A DNA stretch of 64,000 nucleotides from Porphyromonas sp. (GCA_029983505.1 JASBZK010000003.1:18422-82421); one strand, 5' to 3'; shown: positions 3,188 to 62,592, counted from the first letter of the stretch. Numbers and translations are program-made. Notes: generated from the letters alone by a model not told the origin.

Positions 3188-3268
3188 GAGACACGTACCA
3201 AGGAGAAATCTTTGGTACGTGTCTCCTTTTCTTCCGGGTCCGTACCACGTGGTGCGCTATGTCCGTAC
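3188..3268. repeat. 23-nt-period module element; its first hairpin plus T-run is the likely nagB terminator
   Basis: GAGACACGTACCAA (3188-3201), a 10-nt loop, TTGGTACGTGTCTC (3212-3225), followed by CTTTTCTT. Degenerate GTCCGTAC modules at 3238 and 3261 (23 nt apart). Confidence 0.85.
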
Positions 3269-3343
3269 AAAATTCTTTGGCAGCTCGAAGCTTGCAGAAG
3301 AAGGGAGACGGGAGACGGGAGGGGAAAGGTGGGGCTATGGGGC

Positions 3344-4390
3344 TTATTCTATTCCTCGCTCATTCAGCGCCTGCCTGTACCGGCTTGCCTTAAGGGCGTG
3401 CTCAGAGAGGGTTTCGGAGAAATCGTGGTAGCCGCTGAAATCGGGCTTGGCGACCATATAGAGGAACTTGTGTTTTTGTGCGCCAAGTACCCCCTCTATT
3501 GCCTGCAAAGAGGGAATGCGTATGGGACCGGGTGGCAGCCCCCTATACTTGTAAGTGTTGTAGGGACTGTCCACGGAGAGATGACCTTGGAGTATTCGCT
3601 TGAGACCAAAGTCTCGTAGGGCAAATTTGACCGTAGGGTCGGCTTGCAAGGGTATGCCGAGACGAAGACGGTTGAGGTAGAGTCCTGCAATCAGCGGGTA
3701 TTCGTCTGTCATCGTGCTCTCCTCCTCCTCCACGATGGAAGCCAAAATAGATACTTCGTAAGGCGTGAGACCGAGTCCCTTTGCTTTTTCCTTTCGCCTT
3801 TCAGTCCAAAACGCCCGGTACTCTTCTTCCAGCTTTTTTACCAAATCTTCGGGTGCAATAGTCCAGTAGACTTCGTATGTGTTAGGGATGAGACGATAGG
3901 CCATAGTGGTGTCCGGGACGCCGATTTCTTCCAAAAGAGACCGATTCGTCATCGCTTTTGCGACAGAGACGCTGTCGGCCATAATGCGCCTCGAGAGCTG
4001 TTCCCACATCTCTTCGGGCAATCTTCGAGACGTGAATGTGAGCCTTACGGGAGTTTGGTGACCGCTTGCCACCCGCTTGAATAGCGAAAAGACGGTCGTA
4101 TTCGGCTCTATGCGGTAGGCCCCCGCTTTCGGATTCAGACCGGGATTAAGCCCCTCTATGGCTCCGAAGATCCAGTAGCTTCTCGAGTTCGTCATCCTTG
4201 CATCCAGCGAATCGAGCACCGTGGTCCACTCGCTATCGGGGTAGACGTAGACCCACTCGGCTTTGTCGGACTTGAGGTTAAAGGTCGCTTTCCCGAAAAG
4301 CAGATAGCTCAGCCATAAGCCGACCAAAATGACGAGTACGACGAAGGCAGTGAGGATATAGGCAGGGGATGTGTCGGGGCGTTTGGGCAT
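3344..4390 (-). CDS. mltG: endolytic murein transglycosylase MltG (YceG family)
   Basis: N-terminal TM helix, then YceG-type motifs (ASIVEEE, YNTYKYRGLPPGPIRIPS). ATG at 4390 is preferred over the TTG-initiated ORF-track start at 4459, which lies about 17 nt from a -7 box. Confidence 0.85.
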   Translation of the reverse strand: MPKRPDTSPAYILTAFVVLVILVGLWLSYLLFGKATFNLKSDKAEWVYVYPDSEWTTVLDSLDARMTNSRSYWIFGAIEGLNPGLNPKAGAYRIEPNTTVFSLFKRVASGHQTPVRLTFTSRRLPEEMWEQLSRRIMADSVSVAKAMTNRSLLEEIGVPDTTMAYRLIPNTYEVYWTIAPEDLVKKLEEEYRAFWTERRKEKAKGLGLTPYEVSILASIVEEEESTMTDEYPLIAGLYLNRLRLGIPLQADPTVKFALRDFGLKRILQGHLSVDSPYNTYKYRGLPPGPIRIPSLQAIEGVLGAQKHKFLYMVAKPDFSGYHDFSETLSEHALKASRYRQALNERGIE

Positions 4391-4475
4391 AAACGGTCGG
4401 AGCTTATTCGTGAAAAAGTGCGGGGCAGAGGAGGGTACGTGGCGTGAAAGACCCGCCAAGAACCATTTCCGCTTA

Positions 4476-4483
4476 CAAAGATA
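4476..4483 (-). promoter_or_regulatory. candidate Bacteroidota sigma-A -7 box (TATCTTTG on the minus strand) for mltG
   Basis: Plus strand reads caaagata, whose reverse complement TATCTTTG matches TAnnTTTG. Located upstream of mltG. Confidence 0.4.
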
Positions 4484-4496
4484 AGTCTTTTAGAGG

Positions 4497-4504
4497 TATC
4501 TTTG
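4497..4504 (+). promoter_or_regulatory. candidate -7 box TATCTTTG for ispG
   Basis: Exact TAnnTTTG match about 95 nt upstream of the ispG ATG at 4598. It overlaps the TTG codon that opens the ORF-track version of the ORF. Confidence 0.4.
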
Positions 4505-4597
4505 GAAAGCAAAAAAATAGATGGATCGGGAGTAGAGCGGAAAAGGGTCTCAGTCCTTTTTTGGTACGACACCCGGTCAAAAAAGACGGTAACCGAT

Positions 4598-6268
4598 ATG
4601 AGATTTGAATACAGAAGGCGACGGACGAACCCTGTCCGTGTCGCCAACCTGACGATAGGGGGCGAAGCGCCCATCGTGGTGCAGTCTATGGCGAACGTCA
4701 ATACGAACGACATAGAGGGCGGCACCGAGCAGGCGGCACGCATCATTGATGCGGGGGGCAAGATGGTACGCTTTACCACTCAAGGGACGAGGGAGGCTGA
4801 GGCTCTGGGGCGGATTCGCTCGGGGTTGCGCGCGAGTGGGTATGAGGCACCCCTTGTGGCGGATGTCCATTTCCGAAAAGAGGTCGCCTTTGTCGCTGCG
4901 GAGCATGCAGATAAGGTCAGAATCAATCCCGGTAACTTTTACGATTCGGTCATTAAGAGGGGACAGAGCTTCACTCCGGAGGAGTTTGAGGCGGATCTCA
5001 AAGGCCTTCGGGAAGAATTTGGCCGCTTCGTCGACCTGTGCAAAGAGAAAGGCGTCGCCATCCGCATCGGGGTGAACCATGGCTCGCTCTCCGGACGCAT
5101 AATGGACCGGTACGGGGATACGCCGCTCGGGATGGTTTCCGGATGTATGGAGTATCTCGAAGTCTGTGCCGAAAAGGGCTTCGAGGACGTGGTCATTTCC
5201 ATCAAGTCCTCAAATACAAAGGTGATGGCAGAGACGGTGATCCTTCTCTCGAAGACGATGGAAGAGAGAGGAATGCACTATCCGCTCCACCTCGGAGTGA
5301 CGGAAGCCGGAGATGGTGAAGACGGACGTCTGAAGAGTGCCGTCGGCATCGGAGCTCTTCTCAGTCTCGGTCTCGGGGACACCATCAGGGTGTCTCTTAC
5401 GGAGGCACCGGAGGCAGAGATCCCTGTGGCGGGTCTTCTCGTCCGACTGACAGAGGAATTGGCGCTCAATCCTGTGGTGGAGACTTCGGGCGAAGCTCCT
5501 ACACTGCAAGTCCCCCGAAGCAATACCGGGGAGCTGCCCAAGTACCCTGAGGTGATCGCGGACTATGACGAGGCATTTTTGTCTGTGTCGGAGTGTGAGC
5601 GTCCCGATGTGCTTTTTGGACCAAAAGGGTCAATGGCAGAAGAGGATATAGAAGTGCTCACCGACGAAGAGATTTTGGGCGGGTATGGGTTCTCCGGCGG
5701 CAAAAGACGCGTAATAGAAATCACCCGTCCGAATGTCCCCCTTGTGCTGCGCGCGATGGATGAGCTTATCGAGCCGGGGTACATTATCCGGATGAAAGCG
5801 GACTATACGCCTGAAGAGATGCCCACGAGACTTGGTTTCATGCTCGGAGCCAAACTGCTCTTCGGGTCACCCTTGGGCGGACTTTGGCTGAGGAGCGGGT
5901 CGGTTACCCCGCAGGAATTGGCTCGACTTTCATACGGACTACTGCAGGCGTCGCGTTTGCGCTTCACGAAGACGGAGTACATTGCTTGCCCGAGTTGCGG
6001 GCGGACGCTCTTTGATTTGCCCACCACTTTGCAGCGCATACGAGAGGCGACGAAGCACCTCAAAGGGCTCAAAATCGGGGTGATGGGTTGTGTGGTCAAC
6101 GGTCCCGGAGAGATGGCGGATGCCGACTACGGCTATGTGGGCTCCGGTGTAGGCTTGGTGGATCTGTACAAGGGAAAAGAAAAAGTGGAGCGAGCGATCC
6201 CCTCGGGAGATGCCGTCACTCACCTGATCGACCTCATCAAGGCCAATGGTGACTGGCAGGAACCTTAA
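4598..6268 (+). CDS. ispG: 4-hydroxy-3-methylbut-2-en-1-yl diphosphate synthase IspG/GcpE, long form with inserted domain
   Basis: TIM-barrel N-domain (VVQSMANVNT, RINPGN). C-terminal 4Fe-4S motifs CPSCGRT and GCVVNGPGE. A roughly 250-aa insert typical of the Bacteroidota/plant type. Start moved to ATG 4598 (MRFEYRRRRTNPVRV). Confidence 0.9.
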   Translation: MRFEYRRRRTNPVRVANLTIGGEAPIVVQSMANVNTNDIEGGTEQAARIIDAGGKMVRFTTQGTREAEALGRIRSGLRASGYEAPLVADVHFRKEVAFVAAEHADKVRINPGNFYDSVIKRGQSFTPEEFEADLKGLREEFGRFVDLCKEKGVAIRIGVNHGSLSGRIMDRYGDTPLGMVSGCMEYLEVCAEKGFEDVVISIKSSNTKVMAETVILLSKTMEERGMHYPLHLGVTEAGDGEDGRLKSAVGIGALLSLGLGDTIRVSLTEAPEAEIPVAGLLVRLTEELALNPVVETSGEAPTLQVPRSNTGELPKYPEVIADYDEAFLSVSECERPDVLFGPKGSMAEEDIEVLTDEEILGGYGFSGGKRRVIEITRPNVPLVLRAMDELIEPGYIIRMKADYTPEEMPTRLGFMLGAKLLFGSPLGGLWLRSGSVTPQELARLSYGLLQASRLRFTKTEYIACPSCGRTLFDLPTTLQRIREATKHLKGLKIGVMGCVVNGPGEMADADYGYVGSGVGLVDLYKGKEKVERAIPSGDAVTHLIDLIKANGDWQEP

Positions 6269-6334
6269 TCCGGGAGACACGCATTAAGAGATGACTTCTG
6301 CACGTAAAGCAGTGTAAAAGTCTGAACTTGATGG

Positions 6335-6428
6335 GGTACGTACCGAGAAGATCTCCTTGGTACGTATGACAATGAGACGAGATACGGACCGGGAAGATCG
6401 CGAGATACGGGTCAAAAACAGCCGGGTA
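6335..6428. repeat. 23-nt-period GAGAYACRKACC module element, copy A of the roughly 95-nt subfamily (inverted relative to copies B and C)
   Basis: Contains GGTACGTACC at 6335, a hairpin at about 6337-6367, and GAGATACGGACC at 6379 and GAGATACGGGTC at 6402 (23 nt apart). Its reverse complement aligns to 21305-21401 with about nine in ten identities by eye. Confidence 0.85.
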
Positions 6429-6515
6429 TATCCTGTGATTCTTTGTTGGCAAAGTTTCTGATGCACGCGTCCCGGTACGCCTCCGTGCTTTAGCGGAGCA
6501 TACCCACTTTTTCGG

Positions 6516-6523
6516 TATCTTTG
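6516..6523 (+). promoter_or_regulatory. candidate -7 box TATCTTTG for lysS
   Basis: Exact TAnnTTTG match about 120 nt upstream of the lysS ATG at 6645. Confidence 0.4.
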
Positions 6524-6644
6524 TAGAAAATAGGGAGGGTAATACGATTCGGAGCGTGGCTGAGAGAGAAAGAACGAAAACGACCACGCTCGGAGATTTT
6601 TGTACAAGACAGACACATATCGTTTTCTTACACAATTGCCATTC

Positions 6645-8207: not shown

Positions 8208-8256
8208 GCCCGAAATCCTCTCCTGCAATTTGATCTAACTGTTTTTAGCTTGAGTT

Positions 8257-9294: not shown

Positions 9295-9343
9295 CGAAGC
9301 ATAGAGCTCCACATTATCATAGCATAGAAAATAACTGATTACT

Positions 9344-13208: not shown

Positions 13209-13235
13209 CCGGGGGTAGGAGGGGGTAAAAAGTCC

Positions 13236-13322
13236 GGTACGTACCGAGCGTTTCTTTTCGGCCGTACCGACGTGTGAAGATAGGTCTGTATCTCGCTTCC
13301 TTGAGATACAGGCCTATTTTTG
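13236..13322. repeat. 23-nt-period module element whose terminal hairpin plus T-run is the likely rimM terminator
   Basis: GGTACGTACC at 13236, GGCCGTACC at 13260, GGTCTGTATCTC at 13283. Hairpin AGGTCTGTATCTC (13282-13294) pairs with GAGATACAGGCCT (13303-13315), followed by ATTTTT. Confidence 0.8.
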
Positions 13323-15101: not shown

Positions 15102-15896
15102 TCAATACATAGGAGACACCTCATCCTCCTCAAACTGATTGAGGACAAAAGTCTCTCCATCCCATTCCCCATAGCTGTAATAGTGAAGCCAATCGCCGAG
15201 AATCACGACGCGCGTCTGCCGCGTGATCATCAAGTCGAGAAGCAAATGACGATGCCCGAAGATGAAAAAATCCGGTGCATCATTTCCCAGCTTCTTTGTC
15301 TCGCTCTTGGCAAAAAGAGTGAGGTACTCCTCATTCTCGCCCCGATACGGCATAATGGGATAGCGCTCCGTGCCTTTCTTCCTACTGTGTCTGCTCCAAG
15401 ACTGTGCGAAGCGCACAGTAAGGTCGGGATGCAGGAGACTGTACAGTTTCTGCGCCCACCGCGCGTGAAACACTTTTCGGAGAAAAAGGTAACGCTTATT
15501 CTCTGTCTCAAACTCGTCCCCATGGGCGATAAAAAAGCTTTTGCCCAAAATCTCCATCCGGGCAGCTTCCCGATGAAGCGTAAAGCCTATCTCCCGCTCG
15601 AGGTACCCGAAGAGCCAGATATCGTGATTGCCGGTGAAGTAATGGATCTCAACGCCCGCATCCGAGAGCTCGGCGAGGGCGCCTAAGAGACGAATAAAGC
15701 CCTGAGGCGCTACCGTCTTGTACTCAAACCAGTAATCAAAAATATCACCAACGAGGATGAGCATGGCGGCGTCTTCCCTGATCGACTTCAGCCACCGCAC
15801 CACTCGGCGTTCCCGCTCCCCGGGGTCCCCTTGTGACGGCGACCCGAGGTGCATATCCGAAGCGAAATAGACCTTGCGGCGTGGCGTGTCCGACAT
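15102..15896 (-). CDS. lpxH: UDP-2,3-diacylglucosamine diphosphatase (LpxH-type calcineurin-like metallophosphoesterase)
   Basis: Metallophosphoesterase motifs DMHLG, GDIFD, GNHD, GHRH. Size and position next to lptB fit LpxH. Confidence 0.7.
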   Translation of the reverse strand: MSDTPRRKVYFASDMHLGSPSQGDPGERERRVVRWLKSIREDAAMLILVGDIFDYWFEYKTVAPQGFIRLLGALAELSDAGVEIHYFTGNHDIWLFGYLEREIGFTLHREAARMEILGKSFFIAHGDEFETENKRYLFLRKVFHARWAQKLYSLLHPDLTVRFAQSWSRHSRKKGTERYPIMPYRGENEEYLTLFAKSETKKLGNDAPDFFIFGHRHLLLDLMITRQTRVVILGDWLHYYSYGEWDGETFVLNQFEEDEVSPMY

Positions 15897-17354: not shown

Positions 17355-18287
17355 TCAGTCGATGGCGTTTCGGATGAAAGATGAGCGAAGAGCGCGGTTC
17401 CCGGAGAGTCTGAAGAGGTCAAAAGAGACACCGACGATACCGAGTAAAGAGCCCTGCCTGTAGGATAGACTATTCACCTGCGATGTCCGATACCGGTGCC
17501 CCATCCCCACGGTAAGTGTCACGTGACGGATGGGCAAATCCAAGAGCAGATGCTGCTCGATCTCGAACCCGTTATGGAAAGACGAGGGATAAAAGGTTAC
17601 CCCCGTCACCTTGTCGCTCCCTGCCACAAACTCGTAGTAACTCTGTCCGAAAGCGGGGGCAAAGGCGGCATAAATCACCGGTACCCTCATCGCATACTGC
17701 ACCCTCATCGGGAAGCGCTCCACAGGCAGACGGTACCGGAGGCGTGTCCAAGCATCCAGCCCGAAGCCGGCTTTGATATTGGTGACGTTATTCGTGTTAT
17801 TGAGCTTGAGATTGCCTTGCACTCCAATCGTCACAAGCGGAGCAAGGTCGAGGGAAATCCCATGCCACACGAAAGCCCGCCAAGAGGGACCCAAACTGAA
17901 ACGCCCTCCCGTGACGTACATCACGGAGCGGTTGGCCGGATTCTTTGGAAAGCCGCCATAGCCTTCCACCTCTTGATAAATATGCCACTTGTCCGATTCC
18001 TCATGGAGGGCATAATCGGTTTGCGCCAGGATGCTGAGCATCAAACCCGTGTGAGTCGTCTCGCTCAAATAGGCGTCTGCGACACCGACAGTGCCGGCAC
18101 CAAAGAGAAGTTTGGTGTGCGTCGACCGAAGGGGCAATTCACCGTCATAGGGCTCTCCTCCGAACCAATCCCCCACCTTTTGCCAAAAAGAGCTTGGTTC
18201 GGGAGATTGAGCAAAAAGTACCTGAGGGATGAACGCAAGAAGTACTGCGGTGCATCCGGCAAATAAATCCACTCTGTAATCTTTCAC
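17355..18287 (-). CDS. hypothetical outer-membrane beta-barrel-like protein with signal peptide
   Basis: N-terminal signal sequence ending FAQ and alternating-hydrophobicity strands. Tightly packed between parC and the S41 peptidase. No family recognised with confidence. Confidence 0.6.
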   Translation of the reverse strand: MKDYRVDLFAGCTAVLLAFIPQVLFAQSPEPSSFWQKVGDWFGGEPYDGELPLRSTHTKLLFGAGTVGVADAYLSETTHTGLMLSILAQTDYALHEESDKWHIYQEVEGYGGFPKNPANRSVMYVTGGRFSLGPSWRAFVWHGISLDLAPLVTIGVQGNLKLNNTNNVTNIKAGFGLDAWTRLRYRLPVERFPMRVQYAMRVPVIYAAFAPAFGQSYYEFVAGSDKVTGVTFYPSSFHNGFEIEQHLLLDLPIRHVTLTVGMGHRYRTSQVNSLSYRQGSLLGIVGVSFDLFRLSGNRALRSSFIRNAID

Positions 18288-21304: not shown

Positions 21305-21403
21305 AACTGCCCGGCTGTTTTTGGCCCGTATCTCGCAATCTTCCCGGTACGTGTCTCGTCTCATTGTCATACAGACCAAGAAAATCTTCTCGGTACGTAC
21401 CTC
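21305..21403. repeat. 23-nt-period module element, copy B of the roughly 95-nt subfamily
   Basis: GGCCCGTATCTC at 21323, GGTACGTGTCTC at 21346, inverted module ATACAGACC at about 21369, GGTACGTACC at 21392. All are in 23-nt phase. Confidence 0.85.
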
Positions 21404-21485
21404 GTTAAGTGTGGACTCTTGACACAGCTTTACCTGCAGAGAGACCTTTTACGGGGTTAAGCGGGAATTTTAGAGCGGGAAAAGG

Positions 21486-26307: not shown

Positions 26308-26363
26308 AAAAGCTATATGACTTTCTCCATAAAGTTATATGACTTCTCCATAAAGCTATAGGG
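26308..26363. repeat. tandem direct repeat, about 2.5 copies of a 21-23-nt unit
   Basis: AAAGCTATATGACTTTCTCCAT (26308-26330), AAAGTTATATGACTTCTCCAT (26331-26351), and a partial AAAGCTATAGGG (26352-26363). Confidence 0.85.
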
Positions 26364-26416: not shown

Positions 26417-26503
26417 GGAAAAAAGTACGGACCGGGGCAATGCCCCCGGTCCGTATCTCGTTCCCGCGTCGGTACGTGCAAGCCTTTCGTCTCGGTACGT
26501 ACC
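26417..26503. repeat. 23-nt-period module element; its first hairpin preceded by an A-run is a possible minus-strand terminator
   Basis: Hairpin TACGGACCGGGG/CCCCGGTCCGTA (about 26426-26455) preceded by GGGAAAAAA. GGTCCGTATCTC at 26448, GGTACGTGC at 26471, GGTACGTACC at 26494 (23-nt steps). Confidence 0.8.
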
Positions 26504-26518
26504 GGAGAATGTCCCCCA

Positions 26519-26703
26519 CTCTTGAGACCTTTGAAAAAGGGTTCGGGATACGAAAAACGTCAGTTTTTCGTATGAGACTTTGCAGAATGCCTCAGATGCA
26601 AGGCACTGAGGCTGAGGGCAACGGGAGTGTACTAAGGTACACGACCAAGCCCGAATGCCGATAGTAACGCAGCAGATGAGGTATTATGCAAAGGTCTCCT
26701 CTT
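26519..26703. mobile_element. MITE-like or structured-RNA element: 175 bp, 10-bp terminal inverted repeats, flanking 5-bp direct repeat
   Basis: CTCTT (26519-26523), GAGACCTTTG (26524-26533), the interior, CAAAGGTCTC (26689-26698), CTCTT (26699-26703). The interior holds three hairpins and a second nested long-range pairing. Confidence 0.45.
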
Positions 26704-33295: not shown

Positions 33296-33454
33296 AGGAT
33301 GAGAGATGCTCTGCTATGCGTTTCGAGGATTAAACCAAAACTTACTATTTCTGAAACGATAGCTTAGGAGCGCGCCGGGGGAAGCAATGAGAAAACTGCC
33401 AAATAAGCAGCTTGGACCTTCCCGACCTGACCGGAAGCTTTTCTTTTTCGCGTC

Positions 33455-33545
33455 CCGGTTCCATTCTTTTTCTCCGCCGGCATTACCCGGGTCAAATAGA
33501 TAAGGGTATGTTCTCAGCCGCCTTGCAGCACCCCTAAGAATGTTT
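33455..33545 (-). promoter_or_regulatory. TPP (THI-box) riboswitch controlling the thi operon
   Basis: The minus strand reads TTCTTAGGGGTGCTGCAAGGCGGCTGAGAACATACCCTTATCTATTTGACCCGGGTAATGCCGGCGGAGAAAAAGAA. This contains the conserved GGGGUGC, CUGAGA, ACCC and GGUAAUGCCGGCG elements and a closing P1. It starts just downstream of a -7 box. Confidence 0.85.
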
Positions 33546-33603: not shown

Positions 33604-33692
33604 AAAAAAGAGATACAGACCAAAGTAAAATCTTTGGCCTGTATCTCGTCCTTAAAACATACGGGCAGAAAAAAGTTTTTTGGTACGTATCT
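33604..33692. repeat. 23-nt-period module element; its first hairpin plus a minus-strand U-run is the likely ychF terminator
   Basis: A-run 33604-33609. GAGATACAGACCAAAG (33610-33625) pairs with CTTTGGCCTGTATCTC (33632-33647). Further modules at 33656 (AACATACGGGCA) and 33679 (TTTGGTACGTAT), all in 23-nt phase. Confidence 0.8.
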
Positions 33693-33752
33693 CCTTTATC
33701 TTCTGCCCGCGGTCTCTCCTGTGGCGTCTTCGGGACGGGATGCCCCGCGTAG

Positions 33753-34874: not shown

Positions 34875-37385
34875 TTAGGCGTTAGGGGTTTGGGCGGACT
34901 TCTGAGCTTCTTTGATGCGCGCCATAAGGTCGATCGGGTGTGAGACCGTCTCGTCACTGAGGGCGTAATCGATGACTTCTTTGATGTCGGACACGTAGAT
35001 GAAGTCGAGCCCTTCGAGGTAGACGGGCTTGATCTCCTTGATGTCCCGCTCGTTTTCCTTACAGAGGATAATCGTCGTGATGCCGGCACGCTTGGCGGCG
35101 AGGATCTTCTCCCGGATGCCGCCCACGGGAAGCACTTTGCCCCGAAGCGTTATCTCTCCCGTCATCGCGATATTGGGCTTCACTTTGCGCTGCGTGAAAG
35201 TGCTGACAAGTGAGGTGACGATGGTGATGCCGGCGCTGGGTCCGTCCTTGGGGATGGCACCCTCCGGGACGTGGATGTGGACGTTCCAGTAGTCGAAAAT
35301 CTCCGTGGGTATGTCGTAGAGGTGTGCGTGGCTCTTGAGGTACTCGAGAGCAAGTACGGCAGACTCTTTCATGACGTCTCCGAGATTGCCGGTGATGCTC
35401 ATCTTACCGGACTTGGAGGGAGACGGGGCACTCTCGACGAGCAGGATCTCGCCTCCGACGCTCGTCCACGCCAAGCCGGTGACGACGCCCGCGTACTTAT
35501 TGCCGTCGTAGCGGTCACGGATGTACTTTTTCTGCCCGAGGTAATGCTCGAGGTCCGTCTTACCGACCTTGATGGGGAAATAGTCCTCTACGTTTTCTTT
35601 CTCCATAGCGGCATCTTTGACCGCCTTTCTGATAATCTCATTGATGCGCTTGTCGAGCTCACGCACGCCGCTCTCACGGGTGTAAAACTCGATGATCTCG
35701 TCTATCGTCGGCTTCGCGATCTTAATGGCGTTCGGCTTGAGACCCACCTGCTTGAGCGCTTTGGGCAAAAGATGGCGGGAGGCTATCTCTGTCTTTTCCT
35801 CCTGGATGTACCCCGTCACTTCGATCATCTCCATACGGTCACGGAGGGCGTCTGGTATCTCTCCGGCGTTATTGGCGGTGGCTATAAAGAGCGTCTGCGA
35901 CAGGTCGTAGTCGAGGTCGAGGTAGTTGTCGTGGAATGTGTTGTTCTGCTCGGGGTCAAGGACTTCGAGGAGTGCGGAGGAGGGGTCGCCTTTGTAGTCG
36001 GAGCCGAGTTTGTCGACTTCGTCGAGGACGAAGACGGGGTTGGAGCTTGCGGCTTTGAGGAATCCTTTGATGAGGCGACCGGGCATAGCTCCGATGTAGG
36101 TACGGCGGTGTCCTCTGATCTCGGCTTCGTCGTGGAGTCCGCCGAGAGAGATGCGCACGTACTTGCGCCCCAAGGCCTCTGCTATGCTTCTCCCGAGCGA
36201 GGTCTTACCCACGCCCGGAGGGCCGTAGAGGCAGAGTATGGGCGCGTGCATATTCCCTTTGAGCTTGAGGATGGAGAGGTGTTCGAGGATGCGCTCTTTG
36301 ACCTTCTCGAGTCCGAAGTGGTCTTTGTCCAAGACGGCTTTTGCTCTATTGATATCGAAAGAATCCTCCGTGTACTCGTTCCAAGGCAGATCCAAGAGTG
36401 TCTCGAGGTACTGGATCTGTATGGAGTAGTCGGGGCTCTGGGAGGGCATACGCTGGAGTTTCTTGACCTCTTTCTCAAAGCTGTCCTGTACTTCGGCGCT
36501 CCATTTCTTCTTTGAGGCGCGTTCGAGGAGCTCTGCGGAGTCGTCGTCAGCGGAGTCGTTGATTTCTTTCTTAATCATCCGCATCTGTTGCTGCAGGAAG
36601 TACTCTTTCTGCTGCTTGTCCATCTCGTAGTGGGTCCTCTCGAGGATGTCTTTGCGGAGCTCTTCTTGGCGCTTGATTTTATTGAGCAGCTTATGGACTT
36701 GGAATCCTCTCTGCTTGTAGTTCGTGTTGAGCAAAAGTCCGAGCTTGTCTTCCACCGTGTCGGGGAAATTGTTGGAGGCGAAGTTCACGATCGTCTCCGT
36801 GCTCTTCAGGGACTGAAGCGATTCAATGAAGGGCGTCGGTGCATCTCCGCGCATTCGGAGGATCTCCACCATAGTCTCAAGGATGGAGGAGCCGAGCTCA
36901 CGGTACTCTTCGTCGCTTTTGCGTGGTTTGGTTTCGGGGACTTCCTCGAAATACGCCCGCATAAAGGGGTCGTGCTGTGTGAAGCGTCCGAGTTTGATGA
37001 GCCGTTTGCCTTGGAGAATGATTGTGGTGAGCTCGTCATCGATCTGCATAATGCGGACGACTTCGGCCACCGTACCCGTTTCCACGAGATCTTTTGAGAC
37101 GGGGTCTTCGACATCGGCATCTTTTTGGGCCACCACGAGGACGTGCTTATTTGGGGCATCCTCTATGTAGGAAAGGAGGCGGTGTGTCTTTTCTCTTCCG
37201 ATGAGGACAGGGATTGCCACTCTCGGGAAGAGTACATTGTCCCTAAGAGCGAGGATGGGGAGTGTCTTAGGGAGCGTGCTGAAATTTATCAGCCCGCTCA
37301 TAATCCCCTCGTCGTCCGGTAAGATCATGGGAAGCCGCTTGCGGAGCAAATTATCGTTGTCGGGGAAATCTATTTCGTCGTCCAT
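34875..37385 (-). CDS. lon: ATP-dependent Lon protease (LonA)
   Basis: LON N-domain, AAA+ Walker A GPPGVGKTS, and the protease catalytic motif KDGPSAGITI. Start set at ATG 37385 (MDDEIDFPDN), since the 80-aa ORF-track extension has no Lon similarity. Confidence 0.95.
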   Translation of the reverse strand: MDDEIDFPDNDNLLRKRLPMILPDDEGIMSGLINFSTLPKTLPILALRDNVLFPRVAIPVLIGREKTHRLLSYIEDAPNKHVLVVAQKDADVEDPVSKDLVETGTVAEVVRIMQIDDELTTIILQGKRLIKLGRFTQHDPFMRAYFEEVPETKPRKSDEEYRELGSSILETMVEILRMRGDAPTPFIESLQSLKSTETIVNFASNNFPDTVEDKLGLLLNTNYKQRGFQVHKLLNKIKRQEELRKDILERTHYEMDKQQKEYFLQQQMRMIKKEINDSADDDSAELLERASKKKWSAEVQDSFEKEVKKLQRMPSQSPDYSIQIQYLETLLDLPWNEYTEDSFDINRAKAVLDKDHFGLEKVKERILEHLSILKLKGNMHAPILCLYGPPGVGKTSLGRSIAEALGRKYVRISLGGLHDEAEIRGHRRTYIGAMPGRLIKGFLKAASSNPVFVLDEVDKLGSDYKGDPSSALLEVLDPEQNNTFHDNYLDLDYDLSQTLFIATANNAGEIPDALRDRMEMIEVTGYIQEEKTEIASRHLLPKALKQVGLKPNAIKIAKPTIDEIIEFYTRESGVRELDKRINEIIRKAVKDAAMEKENVEDYFPIKVGKTDLEHYLGQKKYIRDRYDGNKYAGVVTGLAWTSVGGEILLVESAPSPSKSGKMSITGNLGDVMKESAVLALEYLKSHAHLYDIPTEIFDYWNVHIHVPEGAIPKDGPSAGITIVTSLVSTFTQRKVKPNIAMTGEITLRGKVLPVGGIREKILAAKRAGITTIILCKENERDIKEIKPVYLEGLDFIYVSDIKEVIDYALSDETVSHPIDLMARIKEAQKSAQTPNA

Positions 37386-37511
37386 GTATATATCGTTTTT
37401 AGTGCGGGAGCTGAATCCTAAAACGCACAAGTTGAAGTTCAATCCGATTATCTGAGGTCTTTTGTGCAGTACCTCCATCTGGATAGAGCAAAAGATGTGC
37501 CATATCGACTG

Positions 37512-37519
37512 CAAAGGTA
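37512..37519 (-). promoter_or_regulatory. candidate -7 box (TACCTTTG on the minus strand) for lon
   Basis: Plus strand reads caaaggta. It implies a 5' leader of about 120 nt. Confidence 0.35.
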
Positions 37520-37651
37520 CCGCTTTTCGGTTAGAAGTCGGAGGGCGGCAGCAAAACGGCGCTTCGGCAGCGTATACAGATGGGGCCCGGAAAAGTGCGG
37601 TTTCTTTGGCTCCGATCGCGTACACTAAGGTGACTTGGACAAAGGAAAAAG

Positions 37652-37743
37652 GAGATACGGACCAAGAAAGACACGAGACCCGTACCGAGACGGAAACGAG
37701 ATACAGACCTATCCGAAGGCAAGATACGTACCAAAATAGAGGT
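37652..37743. repeat. four head-to-tail 23-nt units of the module family (direct array)
   Basis: GAGATACGGACC at 37652, GAGACCCGTACC at 37675, GAGATACAGACC at 37698, AAGATACGTACC at 37721. Each is followed by an 11-nt spacer. Confidence 0.9.
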
Positions 37744-37892
37744 GTCTATTTGTATATATTTTAGTAATGGGTTAAACCTTTTCCGGGATTGGGTGTCAAA
37801 AGAAAGGTTTCAAGCTCTATGGATAGAGGTTGACCTTTAGACGACCGGTCGAAAAGAAGAAAAGTATTCGGGCAATTTTACCAGAACAAAGC

Positions 37893-40725: not shown

Positions 40726-41721
40726 TTAGAGCTTATTGTCTGACCCGAGGACGTTCTTGATCTTATGTGCGTAGAGGTCTCTCATGTGGTCGCGAGCCGG
40801 TCCGAGGTACTTGCGGGGGTCAAACTCGGCGGGCTTGTCGTGGAAGACTTTGCGGATAGCCGCAGTCATCGCGAGACGGCTGTCGGAGTCGATGTTGATC
40901 TTGCATACCGCCGACTTAGCGGCTTTGCGCAACCATTCTTCGGGAATACCGATGGCATCCTTGAGGGCGCCGCCATAGGTGTTGATGGTTTCGACGTCTT
41001 CCTGGGGTACGGAAGAGGAGCCGTGGAGGACGATGGGGAAGCCGGGGAGCTTCTTTTCCACTTCTTCGAGGATGTCGAAACGGAGCATCGGGGGTACGAG
41101 GTGACCTTCGGCGTCGCGGGTACACTGCTCGGGAGTGAACTTATTGGCGCCGTGAGAAGTGCCGATGGAGATGGCGAGTGAGTCTACGCCGGTCTTGGAG
41201 ACGAAGTCGATGACTTCTTCCGGACGGGTGTAGGTGTGGTGCTCAGCGCTGACTTCGTCTTCCACGCCTGCGAGGACGCCGAGCTCACCTTCCACGGTAA
41301 CGTCATACTGATGAGCGTAGTCCACGACTTTCTTGGTGAGTGCCACGTTTTCGTCGTAGGGGAGGTGGGAGCCGTCGATCATCACGCTGGAGAAGCCCAT
41401 CTCGATACAGCTCTGGACGAGCTCGAAAGAGTCGCCGTGGTCGAGGTGAAGCACAATCTGGGGCTTTTCGAGACCGAGTTCTTTTGCATAAGCCACTGCA
41501 CCCTCAGCCATATAGCGAAGCAGGGTCTGGTTGGCATAGCTCCTCGCGCCTTTGGATACTTGGAGGATGACAGGAGATTTGGTTTCAGCTACGGCTTGGA
41601 TGATTGCCTGGAGCTGTTCCATATTATTGAAGTTAAAGGCCGGGATTGCGTAACCTCCGTCCACGGCTTTCTTGAACATCTCTCTGGTGTTGACCAGTCC
41701 GAGATCTTTATAGTTTACCAT
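40726..41721 (-). CDS. fba: class II fructose-1,6-bisphosphate aldolase
   Basis: MVNYKDLGLVNTREMF..., AIPAFNFNN, the HLDHG metal site and VLHGSS. Start set at ATG 41721. Confidence 0.95.
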   Translation of the reverse strand: MVNYKDLGLVNTREMFKKAVDGGYAIPAFNFNNMEQLQAIIQAVAETKSPVILQVSKGARSYANQTLLRYMAEGAVAYAKELGLEKPQIVLHLDHGDSFELVQSCIEMGFSSVMIDGSHLPYDENVALTKKVVDYAHQYDVTVEGELGVLAGVEDEVSAEHHTYTRPEEVIDFVSKTGVDSLAISIGTSHGANKFTPEQCTRDAEGHLVPPMLRFDILEEVEKKLPGFPIVLHGSSSVPQEDVETINTYGGALKDAIGIPEEWLRKAAKSAVCKINIDSDSRLAMTAAIRKVFHDKPAEFDPRKYLGPARDHMRDLYAHKIKNVLGSDNKL

Positions 41722-41829
41722 AATCAATCTGTGTTTTATTGTTATATTTTTAATGGAAAATCGGTTCTCACGTATCTTCAGAACAATCGAAACGGCGCGC
41801 AAGTTGCGGCACATTACGCTTTCCGAGTA

Positions 41830-41837
41830 CAAATATA
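41830..41837 (-). promoter_or_regulatory. candidate -7 box (TATATTTG on the minus strand) for fba
   Basis: Plus strand reads caaatata, about 110 nt upstream of the fba ATG. Confidence 0.4.
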
Positions 41838-41947
41838 CCACAATATAACCAGTAGTTTGAACAATATTTCGCCGGACTGTTCCGCGGATGGCGTTTTGAA
41901 TCAGATACGGTACAGGAAGAACTTCTCGGTAGGACATAGGCTACGGC

Positions 41948-42014
41948 GAGATACAGACCGAAAATTTCTTTTTGGTCTGACTGAAACGAGCGCGACCTTT
42001 TGGTCTTGTGTCTC
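41948..42014. repeat. degenerate copy of the module family
   Basis: GAGATACAGACCGAAAA / TTTTTGGTCTG hairpin (41948-41981), then GGTCTTGTGTCTC at 42002. The phase is disturbed by an indel. Confidence 0.65.
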
Positions 42015-42051
42015 GGGGTTGTTGGTCGGGTTTTTGGGAAAAGAATAAAGT

Positions 42052-42178: not shown

Positions 42179-42252
42179 AAGATTAACCTCTTTATTTTAC
42201 GAGGAGCAACGCCGTCCGGACTTTGTGTCGTTTCTGTTTCGGAATTGCTCTA

Positions 42253-42260
42253 CAAAGGTA
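42253..42260 (-). promoter_or_regulatory. candidate -7 box (TACCTTTG on the minus strand) upstream of tRNA-Phe
   Basis: Plus strand reads caaaggta, 75 nt upstream of the tRNA 5' end. That is rather far, hence the low confidence. Confidence 0.3.
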
Positions 42261-42341
42261 CCAAAACTTTTTATGTTACCAAATCTTTGAGCGGATGTTT
42301 GCGAAAAATATTTCCTTGGAGGTTCGGAAGTGTCCGATTCC

Positions 42342-49602: not shown

Positions 49603-49698
49603 AACAGCCCGATGGTTCTTGATCCGTATCTCGCAATCTTCCCGGTACGTGTCTCGTTTCATCGTGATACAGACCAAAGAGATCTTCTCGGTACGTCC
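49603..49698. repeat. 23-nt-period module element, copy C of the roughly 95-nt subfamily
   Basis: GATCCGTATCTC at 49621, GGTACGTGTCTC at 49644, GGTACGTCC at 49690 (steps of 23 and 46 nt). Collinear with 21305-21401. Confidence 0.85.
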
Positions 49699-49820
49699 AA
49701 GGTATAGGTCGGAGTTTGGAGGACACCTCCTTTTCTTGCTGAAGTTAATCTTGACGGGTTCTAATGCGTATGCTCGTATGCACGTCGCTTCCACTTATGG
49801 GTTTCGATACAATTATGTGG

Positions 49821-51197: not shown

Positions 51198-51217
51198 GAG
51201 ATCCTTAAGCAAGTTAC

Positions 51218-51261
51218 AAAAAGTCCCCAAGACGGAACCGATGCCGTCTCGGGGACTTTTT
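51218..51261. terminator. bidirectional intrinsic terminator
   Basis: AAAAAGTCCCCAAGACGG, an 8-nt loop, then CCGTCTCGGGGACTTTTT. Confidence 0.8.
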
Positions 51262-51282
51262 GTGTGTTCTGTGGGCGTCTGC

Positions 51283-51540
51283 TCAGTCATTACGACGGCT
51301 CCTCTTCATGATGTTTTCCTCAGCAAAAGCGTCCCAACGGCTCCTGAGCTCCTTTCGCCGAATATAGTTCCATCTGATGAGTAGGACGAAGAAGAGGATG
51401 GGCAGGATTGTAACCAATGGTGTCGTGAATTCCGTTAGAGACACATAGGTAACTGCCACAAGAAAGAGGACTGCGGTAAGTATGAGCGCAATGAGGTATA
51501 GCTTCTTTTTCTTTTTTAGCTCGATATTCGTAGCTTTCAT
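51283..51540 (-). CDS. small hypothetical membrane protein (two TM helices)
   Basis: 85 aa with a Lys-rich N-terminus, two hydrophobic spans and a basic C-terminus. No family recognised. Confidence 0.5.
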   Translation of the reverse strand: MKATNIELKKKKKLYLIALILTAVLFLVAVTYVSLTEFTTPLVTILPILFFVLLIRWNYIRRKELRSRWDAFAEENIMKRSRRND

Positions 51541-51588
51541 AGTACTGAGGAATGGTTTCTAACAGGGTCTCCAAGTTATGAGTGAAAG

Positions 51589-58333: not shown

Positions 58334-58341
58334 CAAAAGTA
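58334..58341 (-). promoter_or_regulatory. candidate -7 box (TACTTTTG on the minus strand) for the acyl-CoA ligase gene
   Basis: Plus strand reads caaaagta, about 140 nt upstream of the ATG at 58197. Confidence 0.35.
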
Positions 58342-58466
58342 GCAAAAAATAGTGTATATCGGACTGTTTTTTGCTCACTTTGTGCTTAAATGAGCGTTTT
58401 TGTCCGTTTCTTCCGTCTTTTGCCTTTGACGCCCGAGCAAAAGTTGTCCTCTTTTCCGGTGGGAAC

Positions 58467-58547
58467 GGGGTACGGACCAAGAATATATTTTTGGTCTGTG
58501 TCTTTTAATGGCGTCGGTCTGTACCTTTTTCCGCTCTATGTCCGTAT
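58467..58547. repeat. 23-nt-period module element
   Basis: GGGGTACGGACC at 58467, TTTGGTCTGTGT at 58490, GTCGGTCTGTAC at 58513, CTATGTCCGTAT at 58536. The first two form a hairpin followed by CTTTT. Confidence 0.8.
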
Positions 58548-58686
58548 GAAATTGATTCGCCGTCAGGGATGCAATTTATGCTTTTGAACAAAATCGGAAG
58601 TTACGGGTATTTATAATACAACGGAGACACATCGGTGTTCCTTCATTATCCCGATACCGTATTTATAAATAAATAAGTCCTATTTT

Positions 58687-59559: not shown

Positions 59560-59583
59560 TTACGCTCCGAGTGCCTACTAAAA

Positions 59584-59617
59584 AGCGACGAACCCTTCTC
59601 GTGTGGGGTTCGTCGCT
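59584..59617. terminator. bidirectional intrinsic terminator between pirin (+) and the lipoprotein gene (-)
   Basis: AGCGACGAACCC, a 10-nt loop, GGGTTCGTCGCT, flanked by AAAA on one side and TTCGGTTTTT on the other. Confidence 0.8.
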
Positions 59618-59625
59618 TTCGGTTT

Positions 59626-60483
59626 TTATTTCTCCGTGCGGAGATGACTGCGGTAAAGTGCGTGGCGCTGCATGCGCTCCTCGAGGGTCTTTAGCTCCAC
59701 ATACGCGGCATAAAAGCGGTAGGTCTCGGTGACAGTCTCAGCCTCCGACGGGGTGAGGGCAAACTTTTGGACCTCCCTTCCGTCCCGCATCAGCGATAAA
59801 GTCAGGGGCTTTTTGTCGGAGGCGTTCAGCGCGATGAAGGAAGCAATGCGCTCGGAGCCTCTGAGGGAAAGGGTGAGACGCAGGCGTGTCTGACCGCCGG
59901 ATGAGAAGAGGTAGTTGCGTCCTTTGTCGCTAATGGGTATCGTGTCGCTCACTTCGTATGCTCCGGTCTCCGGGACTTCCGCTCTCACGCTCGTGAAACG
60001 CACCGGACGGTCGCCGGTAGTGCCTACCACGATCTGCAGGCTTGCGTCGTGCCTGAGGAGCACATCCAGGAAGAGTTTGCCACGGGCGTCCCGAGGTTCA
60101 TATCCCCGGTACCGCATTACCGTCTCGTCGTCGGGCAGTGTCGGGTGCTTGGAGCGGACGAAAAGGGGATCCATCCGAACTAAGAGCGCGGAGTCTGCCG
60201 CATATCGCTCGGCAAAGTCTGCGGAGTCCGCTTCACTCATCTTCAGACGTAATTGACGCGAGAGATAAATGGCCTCCTTTCGGAGCGAGACCTCGGTGGG
60301 GTAGGCTTTATGCAGGCTGTCGAAGAGAAGGACGGCTCTCTCCTGATCCGCCCGTTCGTCGGAAGAGGAGAGTGTCCGGGCTTCAGAGAGGAGCGCTTCG
60401 GCCTCTTTATTGGAGCCGTCGCCCGAGCAGGAGCCGAGGAGGAAAGCGGCTGAGAGTACGAGGGAAAGGGTGCGGAGTGTCAT
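59626..60483 (-). CDS. hypothetical lipoprotein
   Basis: Signal peptide with a lipobox-like FLLGSCSG. 4-nt overlap with the upstream GT2 gene. Confidence 0.6.
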   Translation of the reverse strand: MTLRTLSLVLSAAFLLGSCSGDGSNKEAEALLSEARTLSSSDERADQERAVLLFDSLHKAYPTEVSLRKEAIYLSRQLRLKMSEADSADFAERYAADSALLVRMDPLFVRSKHPTLPDDETVMRYRGYEPRDARGKLFLDVLLRHDASLQIVVGTTGDRPVRFTSVRAEVPETGAYEVSDTIPISDKGRNYLFSSGGQTRLRLTLSLRGSERIASFIALNASDKKPLTLSLMRDGREVQKFALTPSEAETVTETYRFYAAYVELKTLEERMQRHALYRSHLRTEK

Positions 60484-61529
60484 AGTTTGAGTCGGGAATA
60501 GGTCTTTTCTCCAAAGAGATGATAACGGACTAAGAGCGAATGCGGGTACAGTTTGCCGTAGGCCTGACGTTTGCCCGCTTCCTCTTCTTTGCTGCGGGGG
60601 ACGCGTGTCTTGAGGTTCGCCCGCCAGGCCTTTGCCACTGCCAGCGCTTCTTTCAGCCCGTTCCTATGGGGGATAAAAGACAGCGCGGCCACAAAGTCGA
60701 GGAAGAACCGTACAATGAGCGTAAGACTCCTTATGCCGTAAGCCGACGGGAGATTCTTCCGGAGCATAAGGAGGTTATTGCGGAAGTTGAGGAAGGTCTT
60801 ATGCGGATTGCTGCTGCTGAGCGTACCGCCGCCAAGGTGATAGACGACACTCGAGGGGACGACTGCCATACTGAACCCTTTGCGGTGCAGGCGCCAAGCG
60901 AGGTCGATCTCCTCCTGATACGCAAAGAAAGAGGCGTCAAACCCGCCTGCGTCGATGTAGGCTTCCGTGCGGATAAGCATACAGGCGCCTGTCGCCCAAA
61001 AGACAGGAGTAGGATAAACGCGGTAAGTGGGTTTGCCGTCGGTCTGAAAGGGCTCGATTGTCCCAAAGATACGCCCCCGGCAGAAGGGATACCCCAGTAG
61101 GTCCAAATAGCCGCCCATCGCTCCGGCGTACTCGAAGAGATTGTGGTCGCGGTCGGAGAGAATCGTAGGTTGGACAGCGACGGTTGCGGGGTTTCGGTCG
61201 AGTTGCCACACGAGCGGTTCGAGCCAGCGTCCTTGGACGCGCACGTCGTTATTGAGGAGCAATGTGTAGGGGTATCTTCGACCACTGTCCCAAAGCCCCT
61301 TAATCGCGCGATTGTACCCCTCTGCGAATCCGAAGTTTCGCTCCAGCGGGATGACCTCCACGCCGAGGCTTCTGGCAAAGTCTGCCGAGCCATCGGTGCT
61401 GCCGTTATCGGCGAGCAGGATGTCGGCTTCTTCCGAAGGGATACTCTGCACCACGGTCGGCAGGTACTCTTTGAGAAGCGGGAGAGCATTCCAAGAGAGG
61501 ATGATGACGACGGTTTTCTTGGTCTCCAT
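60480..61529 (-). CDS. family 2 glycosyltransferase
   Basis: GT-A N-domain (VVIILSWN, LADNGSTDGS, NNDV) and a C-terminal membrane-associated region. Confidence 0.85.
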   Translation of the reverse strand: METKKTVVIILSWNALPLLKEYLPTVVQSIPSEEADILLADNGSTDGSADFARSLGVEVIPLERNFGFAEGYNRAIKGLWDSGRRYPYTLLLNNDVRVQGRWLEPLVWQLDRNPATVAVQPTILSDRDHNLFEYAGAMGGYLDLLGYPFCRGRIFGTIEPFQTDGKPTYRVYPTPVFWATGACMLIRTEAYIDAGGFDASFFAYQEEIDLAWRLHRKGFSMAVVPSSVVYHLGGGTLSSSNPHKTFLNFRNNLLMLRKNLPSAYGIRSLTLIVRFFLDFVAALSFIPHRNGLKEALAVAKAWRANLKTRVPRSKEEEAGKRQAYGKLYPHSLLVRYHLFGEKTYSRLKL

Positions 61530-61532
61530 AGG

Positions 61533-62456
61533 TCAGAGGTTTATGCGGATGTTTTGGCGGTCAAAGTTCGGGTCGTTGGCTTTGCGCCACTCGAGGGTGT
61601 GTTTCCAGCGTTTGTGGCTCCAGAGCCACTGTTCCGGCGCCATAAGGATGTCTTTTTCGAGCAGTTCCATATACTTAATGGACAGATCCCCTTTGGCGAG
61701 GGAGGAGGCGTCTTTGGTGATGAGCTCGAGCGTGACCTCGTAGTGTCCGCGTTTTGTTTGGCGTGAATGGGTGTAGATGACGGGAGCGCTTAGTGCGGAT
61801 GCCAGTCTTTCGGCTCCCGTGAACGTCGCCGTGGGCTGTCCCAAAAAGCGGGTGTAGAGATTGATGCTGCCATACGGAGGCTCTTGGTCGGCTGCGAAGA
61901 TGTAGGTGCGGTTTATGGGGTCTCTTCTGTGAGAGACGATGTACGACCCCGCTTCGTTTTTGTCCAAAAGGCGGCTTCCGAACTTGCTTCTCAGTCGAGA
62001 GAAGACCTCATTACTTACTCCGTGCTGGCGCTTGTAGAGGACGTTGAACTCGGTGTCGCAAAAGAGATTGAAGCCCGTGTAGTACTCCCAGTTGCCTAAG
62101 TGTCCGATTAGGAGAAAGAGATTATGGTGTCCCTCGCGGTGCAATTCCTCGAAGATCTCGGGATTGGTCACCACGGCGTGTCCGGCAAAACGCTTTTCGT
62201 CAAACCCCGCGAGCATGAAGTACTCCACCGCCAAGTCGGCAAGATGTCGGTAAAAGGGCTTGATGTATTTTTTGCCCTCTTTGCCGAACACCCTTGTCAG
62301 CTGACCGCGCACCGTGCCAAGACGGTAGCGGAATACTCTCCGGAGCAGAAAAGCCGCCACATCTGCCCACAGATAGTGCCACCACGCGGGGAGCAGACCG
62401 ATGAGGTGCATCAAGCCGTAAAGCAGATTGCCGGTAAACGTGCGCTTGTCGCTCAT
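61533..62456 (-). CDS. LpxL/HtrB-family (lipid A biosynthesis-type) lysophospholipid acyltransferase
   Basis: N-terminal TM helix and the catalytic HX4E/D-type motif GHLGNWE. Length and fold pattern match Lip_A_acyltrans. Confidence 0.8.
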   Translation of the reverse strand: MSDKRTFTGNLLYGLMHLIGLLPAWWHYLWADVAAFLLRRVFRYRLGTVRGQLTRVFGKEGKKYIKPFYRHLADLAVEYFMLAGFDEKRFAGHAVVTNPEIFEELHREGHHNLFLLIGHLGNWEYYTGFNLFCDTEFNVLYKRQHGVSNEVFSRLRSKFGSRLLDKNEAGSYIVSHRRDPINRTYIFAADQEPPYGSINLYTRFLGQPTATFTGAERLASALSAPVIYTHSRQTKRGHYEVTLELITKDASSLAKGDLSIKYMELLEKDILMAPEQWLWSHKRWKHTLEWRKANDPNFDRQNIRINL

Positions 62457-62470
62457 TTTAGGGAAGAGTC

Positions 62471-62592
62471 AAAAAAAGAGATACAGACCGAGAGGGAATC
62501 CTCGTACGTGCCGAGATGCCGTCGTGGTACAGACTGGGGAGATCTTGAGATACAGACCAAGATTTTGGCGCTCTCGGTATCGCGGTTCGCAT
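62471..62592. repeat. five consecutive 23-nt units of the module family
   Basis: GAGATACAGACC at 62478, CTCGTACGTGCC at 62501, GTGGTACAGACT at 62524, GAGATACAGACC at 62547, GCTCTCGGTATC at 62570. Preceded by an A-run at 62471-62477. Confidence 0.85.

Follow-up and report, generated by a model that had tools for sequence, protein, structure and literature searches.

A 64,000-nt stretch of DNA from Porphyromonas sp. (GCA_029983505.1, JASBZK010000003.1:18422-82421; hereafter the window, by which the whole stretch is meant) raises the question of what kind of element occupies its long intergenic spacers, where a 12-nt module (motif GAGAYACRKACC) recurs in short arrays with a period of 23 nt. The original prediction, made by a model from the sequence, had pointed out this motif in 11 long spacers and had likened it to BrickBuilt, a minisatellite of Porphyromonas gingivalis. 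The analysis reported here confirms the motif but leads to a different affiliation. With a probability of roughly one half, the eleven loci represent a lineage-specific family of dispersed repeats in a Porphyromonas-like genus, resembling the REP (repetitive extragenic palindrome) and BIME (bacterial interspersed mosaic element) sequences, a reading drawn from sequence comparison in which concerted evolution, recognition of the module by a factor, and secondary roles as terminators are presumed.

Intergenic confinement and architecture of the arrays

The motif GAGAYACRKACC has 14 exact matches in the window, counting both strands, all of them between genes, compared to 0.08 expected from dinucleotide-preserving shuffles, and 60 matches with up to two mismatches, compared to 26.6 expected. 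A position weight matrix, which was built iteratively from the window and related loci and applied with a cut-off score of at least 12, retrieves 28 modules in 5,520 intergenic nt versus four weak ones in 58,480 genic nt, i.e., a density of matches approximately 70-fold higher between genes than within them. The statement that the full module lies outside coding sequence is therefore borne out, the exact copies being solely intergenic. When the gene map was rebuilt from the called genes of near-identical contigs and checked against Pfam, an array was found in 11 of the 12-13 spacers of at least 150 nt, and each of the 11 loci listed in the original prediction turned out to be real. The long spacers free of arrays are 42179-42341 and a doubtful one at 18042-18283, and the region 51198-51588 is a spacer in appearance only, with a conserved small open reading frame (ORF) inside. 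The longest ORFs of lon (916 aa, 34875-37625) and fba (403 aa, 40726-41937) extend too far at their 5' ends, their orthologues being called with 840 and 331 aa, respectively, and correcting this over-extension widens the spacers around the arrays at 37648 and 41944. Among spacers of at least 60 nt, arrays are present in two of six convergent, five of nine co-directional, and four of five divergent ones, and they occupy the free part of nearly any long spacer regardless of the orientation of the flanking genes. In the core chromosome they recur about every 6 kb and cover about 1.6% of the window length, a density that is indeed far above that of BrickBuilt, with units in both orientations, as had been suspected.

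The brick, a 23-nt unit with the consensus aaacGAGAYACRKACCRRGaaga, can lie in either orientation without loss of register. In the window and in 18 loci of a sister genome, the starts of modules on the same strand are separated by 23, 46, or 69 nt only, those of +/- pairs by 26, 49, or 72 nt only, and those of -/+ pairs by 20 or 43 (or 44) nt only. With module position 8 taken as the site centre, all these spacings reduce to one period of 23 nt, and thus the repeating object is the 23-nt brick. The periodicity described earlier becomes even stricter once orientation is counted, since the lattice is constant in every orientation class. The positions in the earlier lists of 23-nt steps are those of the lattice and do not always coincide with module starts, which are shifted by +/-3 nt at orientation flips.

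The extent of the arrays was determined by tracing the lattice with the relaxed core YACRKACC, allowing up to two mismatches. Four contiguous bricks (about 92 nt) make up 36 of the 54 arrays, and every one of the 11 in the window, where several lattice positions are filled by degenerate modules. Many of the degenerate bricks turn out to be palindromic hybrids (ttCTCGGTACGTACCGAGaa). Consequently, the loci are not the open-ended tandem repeats that they had been taken for, and each of them comprises four bricks. Their orientation is also restricted. No fewer than 33 of the 36 four-brick arrays fall within four of the ten possible orientation classes (++++, +++-, +-++, and +-+-), and 10 of the 11 window arrays, which form an unselected set, fit these classes, compared to 44% expected at random. 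Since orientation is not free, the array can be described as two 46-nt units, each of them being either a direct pair (++) or an inverted pair (+-), the latter almost perfectly palindromic. The loci that were taken from metagenome-assembled genomes (MAGs) for this grammar had been picked for having a +- hairpin, and five of the 11 patterns containing +- obey it. This hairpin-based choice does not by itself create the observed orientation classes, with which the unselected window set agrees.

Paralogous arrays have only their bricks in common: arrays of the same orientation pattern are 56% identical on average and, outside one subfamily, 67% at most, and their flanks are unrelated to one another. 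That composite subfamily (6340, 21327, and 49625) shows 79-88% identity among its arrays. The subfamily bears the extension AAAAACAGCCGGG, and the segment of the window around its member at 6329-6420 (6279-6426, ~149 nt) is an 85-86% copy of a segment of the parC/psd spacer, non-brick flank included.

Distribution and age in related bacteria

The host is an uncultured Porphyromonas-like bacterium, the members of its cluster being MAGs of Porphyromonas sp., and its proteins have their next named homologues in P. somerae, P. levii, and P. cangingivalis. A scan with the hairpin form of the motif over one genome per species (185,579 species) yielded 17 loci, all in a single MAG (Bacteroidales W0P9.035), plus one contig binned among Actinomycetes. 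The latter (L019, JAFADF010000041.1, 'Actinomycetes bacterium' MAG, 3 kb) carries the brick hairpin, shares its repeat sequence with the MAG locus L006, and was probably misbinned from the Porphyromonas-like organism. The hairpin pattern had no matches in viral contigs and none in JGI metagenome contigs; a phage or mobile-element origin was rejected on the basis of its absence from viral contigs.

Together with several other MAGs, W0P9.035 represents a sister species with full synteny with the window and ~91% DNA identity. Nine of the eleven arrays (3188, 13236, 21305, 26422, 33610, 41948, 49603, 58467, and 62478) lie at the same place in this species and keep the four-brick layout with point substitutions only; the hairpin is degraded in the orthologue of 26418-26509, and the orthologue of 62474-62565 has copies nearer to the consensus than those of the window. 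The array 6329-6420 is missing from the sister species as part of a 213-nt indel between CTTAATCGG and CTTTAGCGG, and the ++++ array 37648-37739 is replaced there by a strain-variable 22-nt GTCGAC minisatellite. No arrays restricted to the sister species were seen over the ~63 kb compared. The conservation of nine arrays in both layout and place indicates that they are old and not recently mobile, and the arrays already existed before two species differing by ~9% in DNA separated. Moreover, every array is unchanged in strains at least 99.8% identical to the window, so that comparison of orthologous spacers gives a constant number of units both in near-identical strains and across the two species. 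The original prediction had counted against itself the case that the loci are simply conserved orthologous sites with no presence/absence variation. This is largely what was found, one array being absent and one replaced.

Identity between the two species amounts to 79.5% at four-fold degenerate sites, 90.5% over all positions of the bricks, and 88.9% in other well-aligned intergenic DNA. Within the bricks, modules are 92.3% identical versus 88.5% for linkers (p = 0.07).

More distant relatives, with YchF proteins 93, 89, and 86% identical, lack GAGAYACRKACC; module sequences in the clade comprise GAGAYACRKACC, AGTCCSGGAC, and GAGGTTCCGTACC. The relative represented by loci L023 and L041 uses AGTCCSGGAC, with 24 copies in L041 (2 expected) and 17 in L023 (1.3 expected). 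Sets of four at exact 23-nt steps lie at L041 4885-4962, L041 19662-19740, and L023 7129-7207, and a run of three clear modules with a degenerate fourth extends from L041 11929 to ~12007. Two of these sets are placed as in the window, i.e., close to the 3' end of rimM and upstream of an aminoacyl-tRNA synthetase (aaRS) gene promoter. Another relative (L022) contains a 23-nt direct array of GAGGTTCCGTACCTCTTAGCTTC. In the P. somerae-like locus L040, a single 21-kb locus, the spacers are compact and no arrays are present in the five longest ones. The occurrence of the four x 23-nt layout with a different module in a relative suggests that the layout is older than the module sequence and that the module has been replaced in concert. 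The top YchF matches P0001 and P0005 were rejected as close relatives, being internally duplicated and probably misassembled proteins.

Two further observations concern these repeats. The relative with a YchF 86% identical (L024) carries 21-nt palindromic tandem units with a ATTTCATTAAATGAAAT core in ~4 copies at 4131-4212 and at 15431-15512, flanked by 22-nt repeats. In the window, the first degenerate brick of the array 13230-13321 (13230-13252, AAGTCCGGTACGTACC) is mixed, its left half being like the AGTCCSGGAC of the L041 relative and its right half like the window module, which may be due to chance or may be a relic of module replacement.

Proposed affinity with REP/BIME sequences and alternative explanations

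The family may be regarded as a further variant of dispersed extragenic repeats, for which the RAYT-associated (REP-associated tyrosine transposase) REP/BIME sequences of Enterobacteria and Pseudomonas, with their REPIN doublets, provide the nearest working analogy. In both cases, the sequences are short, extragenic, present in high copy number, and species-specific, and appear to change in concert. Both form clusters of alternating orientation at fixed spacing, in which inverted pairs form long hairpins, and both lack target-site duplications, occupy many orthologous positions, and possibly play side roles as terminators or mRNA stabilizers. Since hundreds of dispersed sites cannot change jointly by point mutation, we infer that the arrays evolve in concert. 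Such evolution would be driven by copy-and-overwrite between arrays, through either gene conversion or a sequence-specific enzyme, and a candidate enzyme would act on the hairpin-forming +- units in the same way as RAYT on REP/REPIN elements. The 12-nt module would serve as the recognition site of a putative trans-acting factor, and a homology-driven exchange of bricks would prevent the 23-nt lattice from ever slipping. Copies with strong hairpins located just 3' of genes probably function as secondary terminators or stabilizers of transcript 3' ends, and those between divergent promoters are probably passengers.

Several observations weigh against this affiliation. The arrays depart from the REP definition of Di Nocera et al. 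(PMC3733652) on three points, namely the stem-loop of the single unit, the GTAG/CGTC tag, and the bias towards gene 3' ends. A REP unit is an imperfect palindrome of 20-40 bp; the bricks of the arrays form no stem-loop singly, +- pairs are palindromic, and ++++ arrays are not. REPs keep a GTAG or CGTC tetranucleotide at one end (PMC3733652), a tag lacking here, where the brick consensus is without GTAG and TCTCGTC occurs in a minority of bricks. Head-to-tail dimers are rare among REPs (PMC3733652), whereas direct pairs are common in the arrays, which, in contrast to REPs, are no rarer in divergent spacers (4/5) than in others and show no preference for convergent or co-directional ones. Arrays of exactly four units on a gap-free 23-nt lattice are a further difference. 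Regarding a mobilizing gene, the window holds no transposase, as the original prediction had stated and as the Pfam-checked gene map, devoid of transposase domains, corroborates, and a tblastn search with E. coli RayT gave no matches in the 534 kb of DNA searched, both results covering less than a whole genome. Moreover, neither recent insertion nor strain polymorphism was seen, so that mobility is deduced solely from the replacement of the module between species, and the bricks show no extra conservation over other alignable intergenic DNA (0.905 vs. 0.889, p = 0.22). Finally, four sites with fixed number and phasing suit a protein complex at least as well as a mobile element.

Other known systems show partial likenesses. 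The neisserial intergenic mosaic elements (NIME; dRS3/RS repeats) and the Correia elements are intergenic mosaics of short repeats, and here, likewise, 22-nt minisatellites, bricks, and IS5-type MITEs (miniature inverted-repeat transposable elements) are found in the same spacers. However, NIME consist of 20-bp dRS3 inverted repeats around RS blocks of 50-150 bp and have no fixed four-unit lattice. Four contiguous 22-bp sites are present in the oriV of pPS10 or the right end of Tn7. Such iteron and transposon-end arrays resemble the present ones in being four contiguous protein-binding repeats of ~22-23 bp, ~90 bp in total, binding being putative here, but they occur once per replicon or element beside the gene of the binding protein, whereas the arrays occur about once per 6 kb and in mixed orientation.

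A protein complex is the basis of the alternative that the arrays are functional sites for a host DNA-binding oligomer, either nucleoid-associated, insulating, or domain-organizing, whose four phased 23-bp sites are kept by selection, an explanation that we hold rather unlikely. The constancy of the four sites and of their 23-nt spacing across species, despite a different module, speaks for it, as does the core GTCC-S-GGAC of the relative, which is a perfect odd palindrome of the dimer-site type. Furthermore, modules are somewhat better conserved than linkers, bricks change at half the rate of four-fold sites, and the arrays have stayed in place at orthologous positions, show no trace of transposition, and are found in every spacer class, divergent promoters included. 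Nevertheless, functional sites could hardly be exchanged wholesale for another module in close relatives and at so many scattered positions, because this requires a simultaneous change of the protein. The decay and loss of arrays also weigh against it, since some arrays are decaying in one lineage (62478 in the window and 26422 in the sister species) and two of the eleven have been lost or replaced without visible consequence. Neither a conservation that does not exceed that of other alignable intergenic DNA nor the five longest, array-free spacers of the single 21-kb P. somerae-like locus fit well with selected binding sites. A broader version of this idea, which we regard as unlikely, is that the array is a functional chromosomal device of the clade, its four phased sites in most long spacers being read by an oligomeric DNA-binding protein or a domesticated HUH-type enzyme, with module and reader co-evolving and with BrickBuilt and the 22-nt minisatellites as runaway derivatives. 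If so, each species would write its own 'word' in an unchanged 'grammar'.

Hairpin formation could indicate that the arrays act mainly at the RNA level, as bidirectional intrinsic terminators or 3'-end stabilizing hairpins multiplied through the genome, a reading that we hold distinctly improbable. The +- pairs (38-46 nt) are palindromic (z down to -7) and form stems of 12-20 bp with an A-tract 5' and a T-tract 3', whereas single bricks and ++++ arrays are not palindromic. Folding far above that of shuffled sequences is seen in four arrays only (3188, 13236, 26422, and 33610; z -5.3 to -7.1), all of them located 22-60 nt past a stop codon, and the differences between species in the hairpins 3188 and 13236 are transitions that retain G-U-compatible pairing in the sense transcript. 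However, shuffled sequences fold as well as, or almost as well as, the other seven of the 11 arrays, and neither the ++++ arrays, which lack structure, nor those between divergent promoters, where four arrays have nothing to terminate, fold significantly. The terminator layout of a GC-rich hairpin followed by a U-tract at the 3' end of a gene fits 3188-3225 and, plausibly, three other arrays, but not the remaining seven. In addition, the T-tracts measure only 3-4 nt, the sister species has a disrupted hairpin at 26422, and Rfam 15 covariance models gave no match overlapping any array, either at the gathering score or at an E-value of up to 1. The likening to BrickBuilt, i.e., to a minisatellite inside an IS5-mobilized MITE, fares worse still and appears highly improbable. 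BrickBuilt units (AGAYCATARTATCCTCTCRTRTG; PMC4596501, supplement) form direct repeats only, in 1-22.8 strain-variable copies at 19 loci per genome (Klein et al. 2015, PMC4596501), and the element's leader and tail segments end in IS5-like terminal repeats, GAGACCTTYGCA (PMC4596501). Its unit has the same length of 23 nt without spacers, it is always intergenic, it belongs to one small Porphyromonas-like clade, i.e., a related host, and it shares with the arrays the absence of an Rfam match (PMC4596501 for unit, setting, and host). Moreover, the array 26418-26509 has an IS5-type MITE 15 nt away, the terminal repeats of which (GAGACCTTTGAA / TGCAAAGGTCTC) are BrickBuilt-like. However, this MITE is missing in the sister species, where the array is present, and must thus be an independent insertion, and the remaining arrays have neither terminal repeats of this kind nor a leader or tail. 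In sequence, the two units are unrelated: alignment with the brick gives a best cyclic match of 10/23, compared to a shuffle mean of 11.6, and the BrickBuilt unit has no matches at up to three mismatches. A search of 33 arrays revealed no target-site duplication above the permutation null and no conserved insertion target or flank; the ++++ arrays have no inverted termini, and the marks of a DDE-type MITE are lacking. Furthermore, the bricks lie in both orientations, and the four units per array, at ~one locus per 6 kb, are fixed and invariant between strains. With no similarity of the unit and no leader, tail, IS5-type terminal repeats, target duplications, or copy-number variation, this part of the original prediction is not supported, being contradicted on four defining features.

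Small dispersed repeats are poorly described in Bacteroidota, and literature searches gave BrickBuilt as the sole comparable element in Porphyromonas. The grammar of the present family is unusually rigid, with two 46-nt units, i.e., four bricks, on a gap-free 23-nt lattice, and it persists from species to species under replacement of the module, which makes these dispersed repeats a clean system to study concerted evolution and the protein that would read them. The arrays are also expected to cause trouble in the assembly and alignment of MAGs of this clade, and they can be used as species-specific markers.

Individual arrays and neighbouring elements

The genes of the window are ordinary housekeeping genes, including glgP, nagB, yceG, ispG, an aaRS gene, gpsA, pgi, murA, rimM, recR, parC, psd, pssA, the thi operon, ychF, lon, fba, gmk, yicC, secA, sdaA, rsmF, and others, together with three tRNAs and one thiamine pyrophosphate (TPP) riboswitch. 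This riboswitch (33452-33545, minus strand) lies upstream of the operon thiS-thiC-thiDE-thiG-thiH-thiF, and the array 33606-33697 is found just past the operon promoter. The array 41944-42036 can be read only with the help of the sister sequence because of a 1-nt insertion in its last brick. The eleven arrays are collected below.

Positions, brick patterns, and settings of the eleven arrays of the window (OMP, outer-membrane protein)
Array	Strand	Pattern	Setting	RNA fold z	Remarks
3184..3275	.	+ - - (-)	convergent spacer nagB/PIG-L(+) / yceG(-)	-6.6	first pair is a 17-bp hairpin at 3188-3225
6329..6420	+	+ - + +	3' of ispG, ~90 nt upstream of aaRS promoter
13230..13321	.	(+)(+) - +	22 nt 3' of rimM, upstream of tRNA-Gly	-7.1	-/+ pair is a 20-bp hairpin
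21316..21407	-	- - + -	between divergent parC and psd promoters	-0.2	canonical + - + + on minus strand
26418..26509	-	+ - - -	convergent spacer metallophosphatase(+) / thiF(-)	-5.4
33606..33697	.	+ - (+) -	56 nt 3' of ychF(-), upstream of thi operon promoter and TPP riboswitch	-5.3
37648..37739	+	+ + + +	divergent spacer lon(-) / OMP(+)	-0.6	all direct, no hairpin
41944..42036	.	+ (-) (+) -	3' of tRNA-Phe(-), upstream of fba(-)
49614..49705	-	- - + (-)	divergent spacer, upstream of sdaA	-1.5	composite subfamily
58463..58554	-	+ - - (-)	divergent spacer AMP-binding(-) / pirin(+)	-2.1
62474..62565	+	+ (+) + +	between two minus-strand genes	-1.4

Several of these spacers also contain other repeats. 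The IS5-type MITE next to the array 26418-26509 measures 175 nt (window 26524-26698) and has the terminal repeats GAGACCTTTGAAAAA / TTATGCAAAGGTCTC, whose motif recurs at the ends of BrickBuilt and ISPg1. Another left end lies internally near 26573, and CTCTT may be a target duplication. This MITE is missing at the orthologous place in the sister species, and a copy ~80% identical is found in the sister locus L018 at 2129-2307. An IS5-type MITE as carrier of the arrays was rejected, these terminal repeats belonging to an independent insertion. In the sister loci L026-L030, a 90-nt IS5-type MITE (GAGACCTTCGCA...TGCAAAGGTCT) lies inside the last brick of the orthologue of 41944-42036, at window position 41999/42000, where the window itself has one extra T.

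The 22-nt tandem repeat AAAGCTATATGACTTTCTCCAT is present in 2.4 copies at 26309-26360 of the window, and its strain-variable orthologue in the sister species has ~4.5-5.5 copies according to Tandem Repeats Finder (TRF). The sister minisatellite that replaces the array 37648-37739 lies in the lon/OMP spacer (L026-L031, corresponding to window 37398-37829) and is hypervariable, with roughly 10-20 units of 22 nt that have a GTCGAC core, such as GTCGACCTATTTGCCCGAATAT and TTAGTCGACTAATTTCCAAGAA, their number being different in every strain examined. The idea that every tandem repeat of the clade has a 23-nt period was rejected on this basis, the GTCGAC repeats being 22 nt by TRF, and the 23-nt period is thus claimed for the brick families only. 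Lastly, the 7-nt microsatellite AGACGGG (window 3299-3321, 3.3 copies) has one unit fewer in L001 and L003, which is the sole change of spacer length among the strains at least 99.8% identical to the window.

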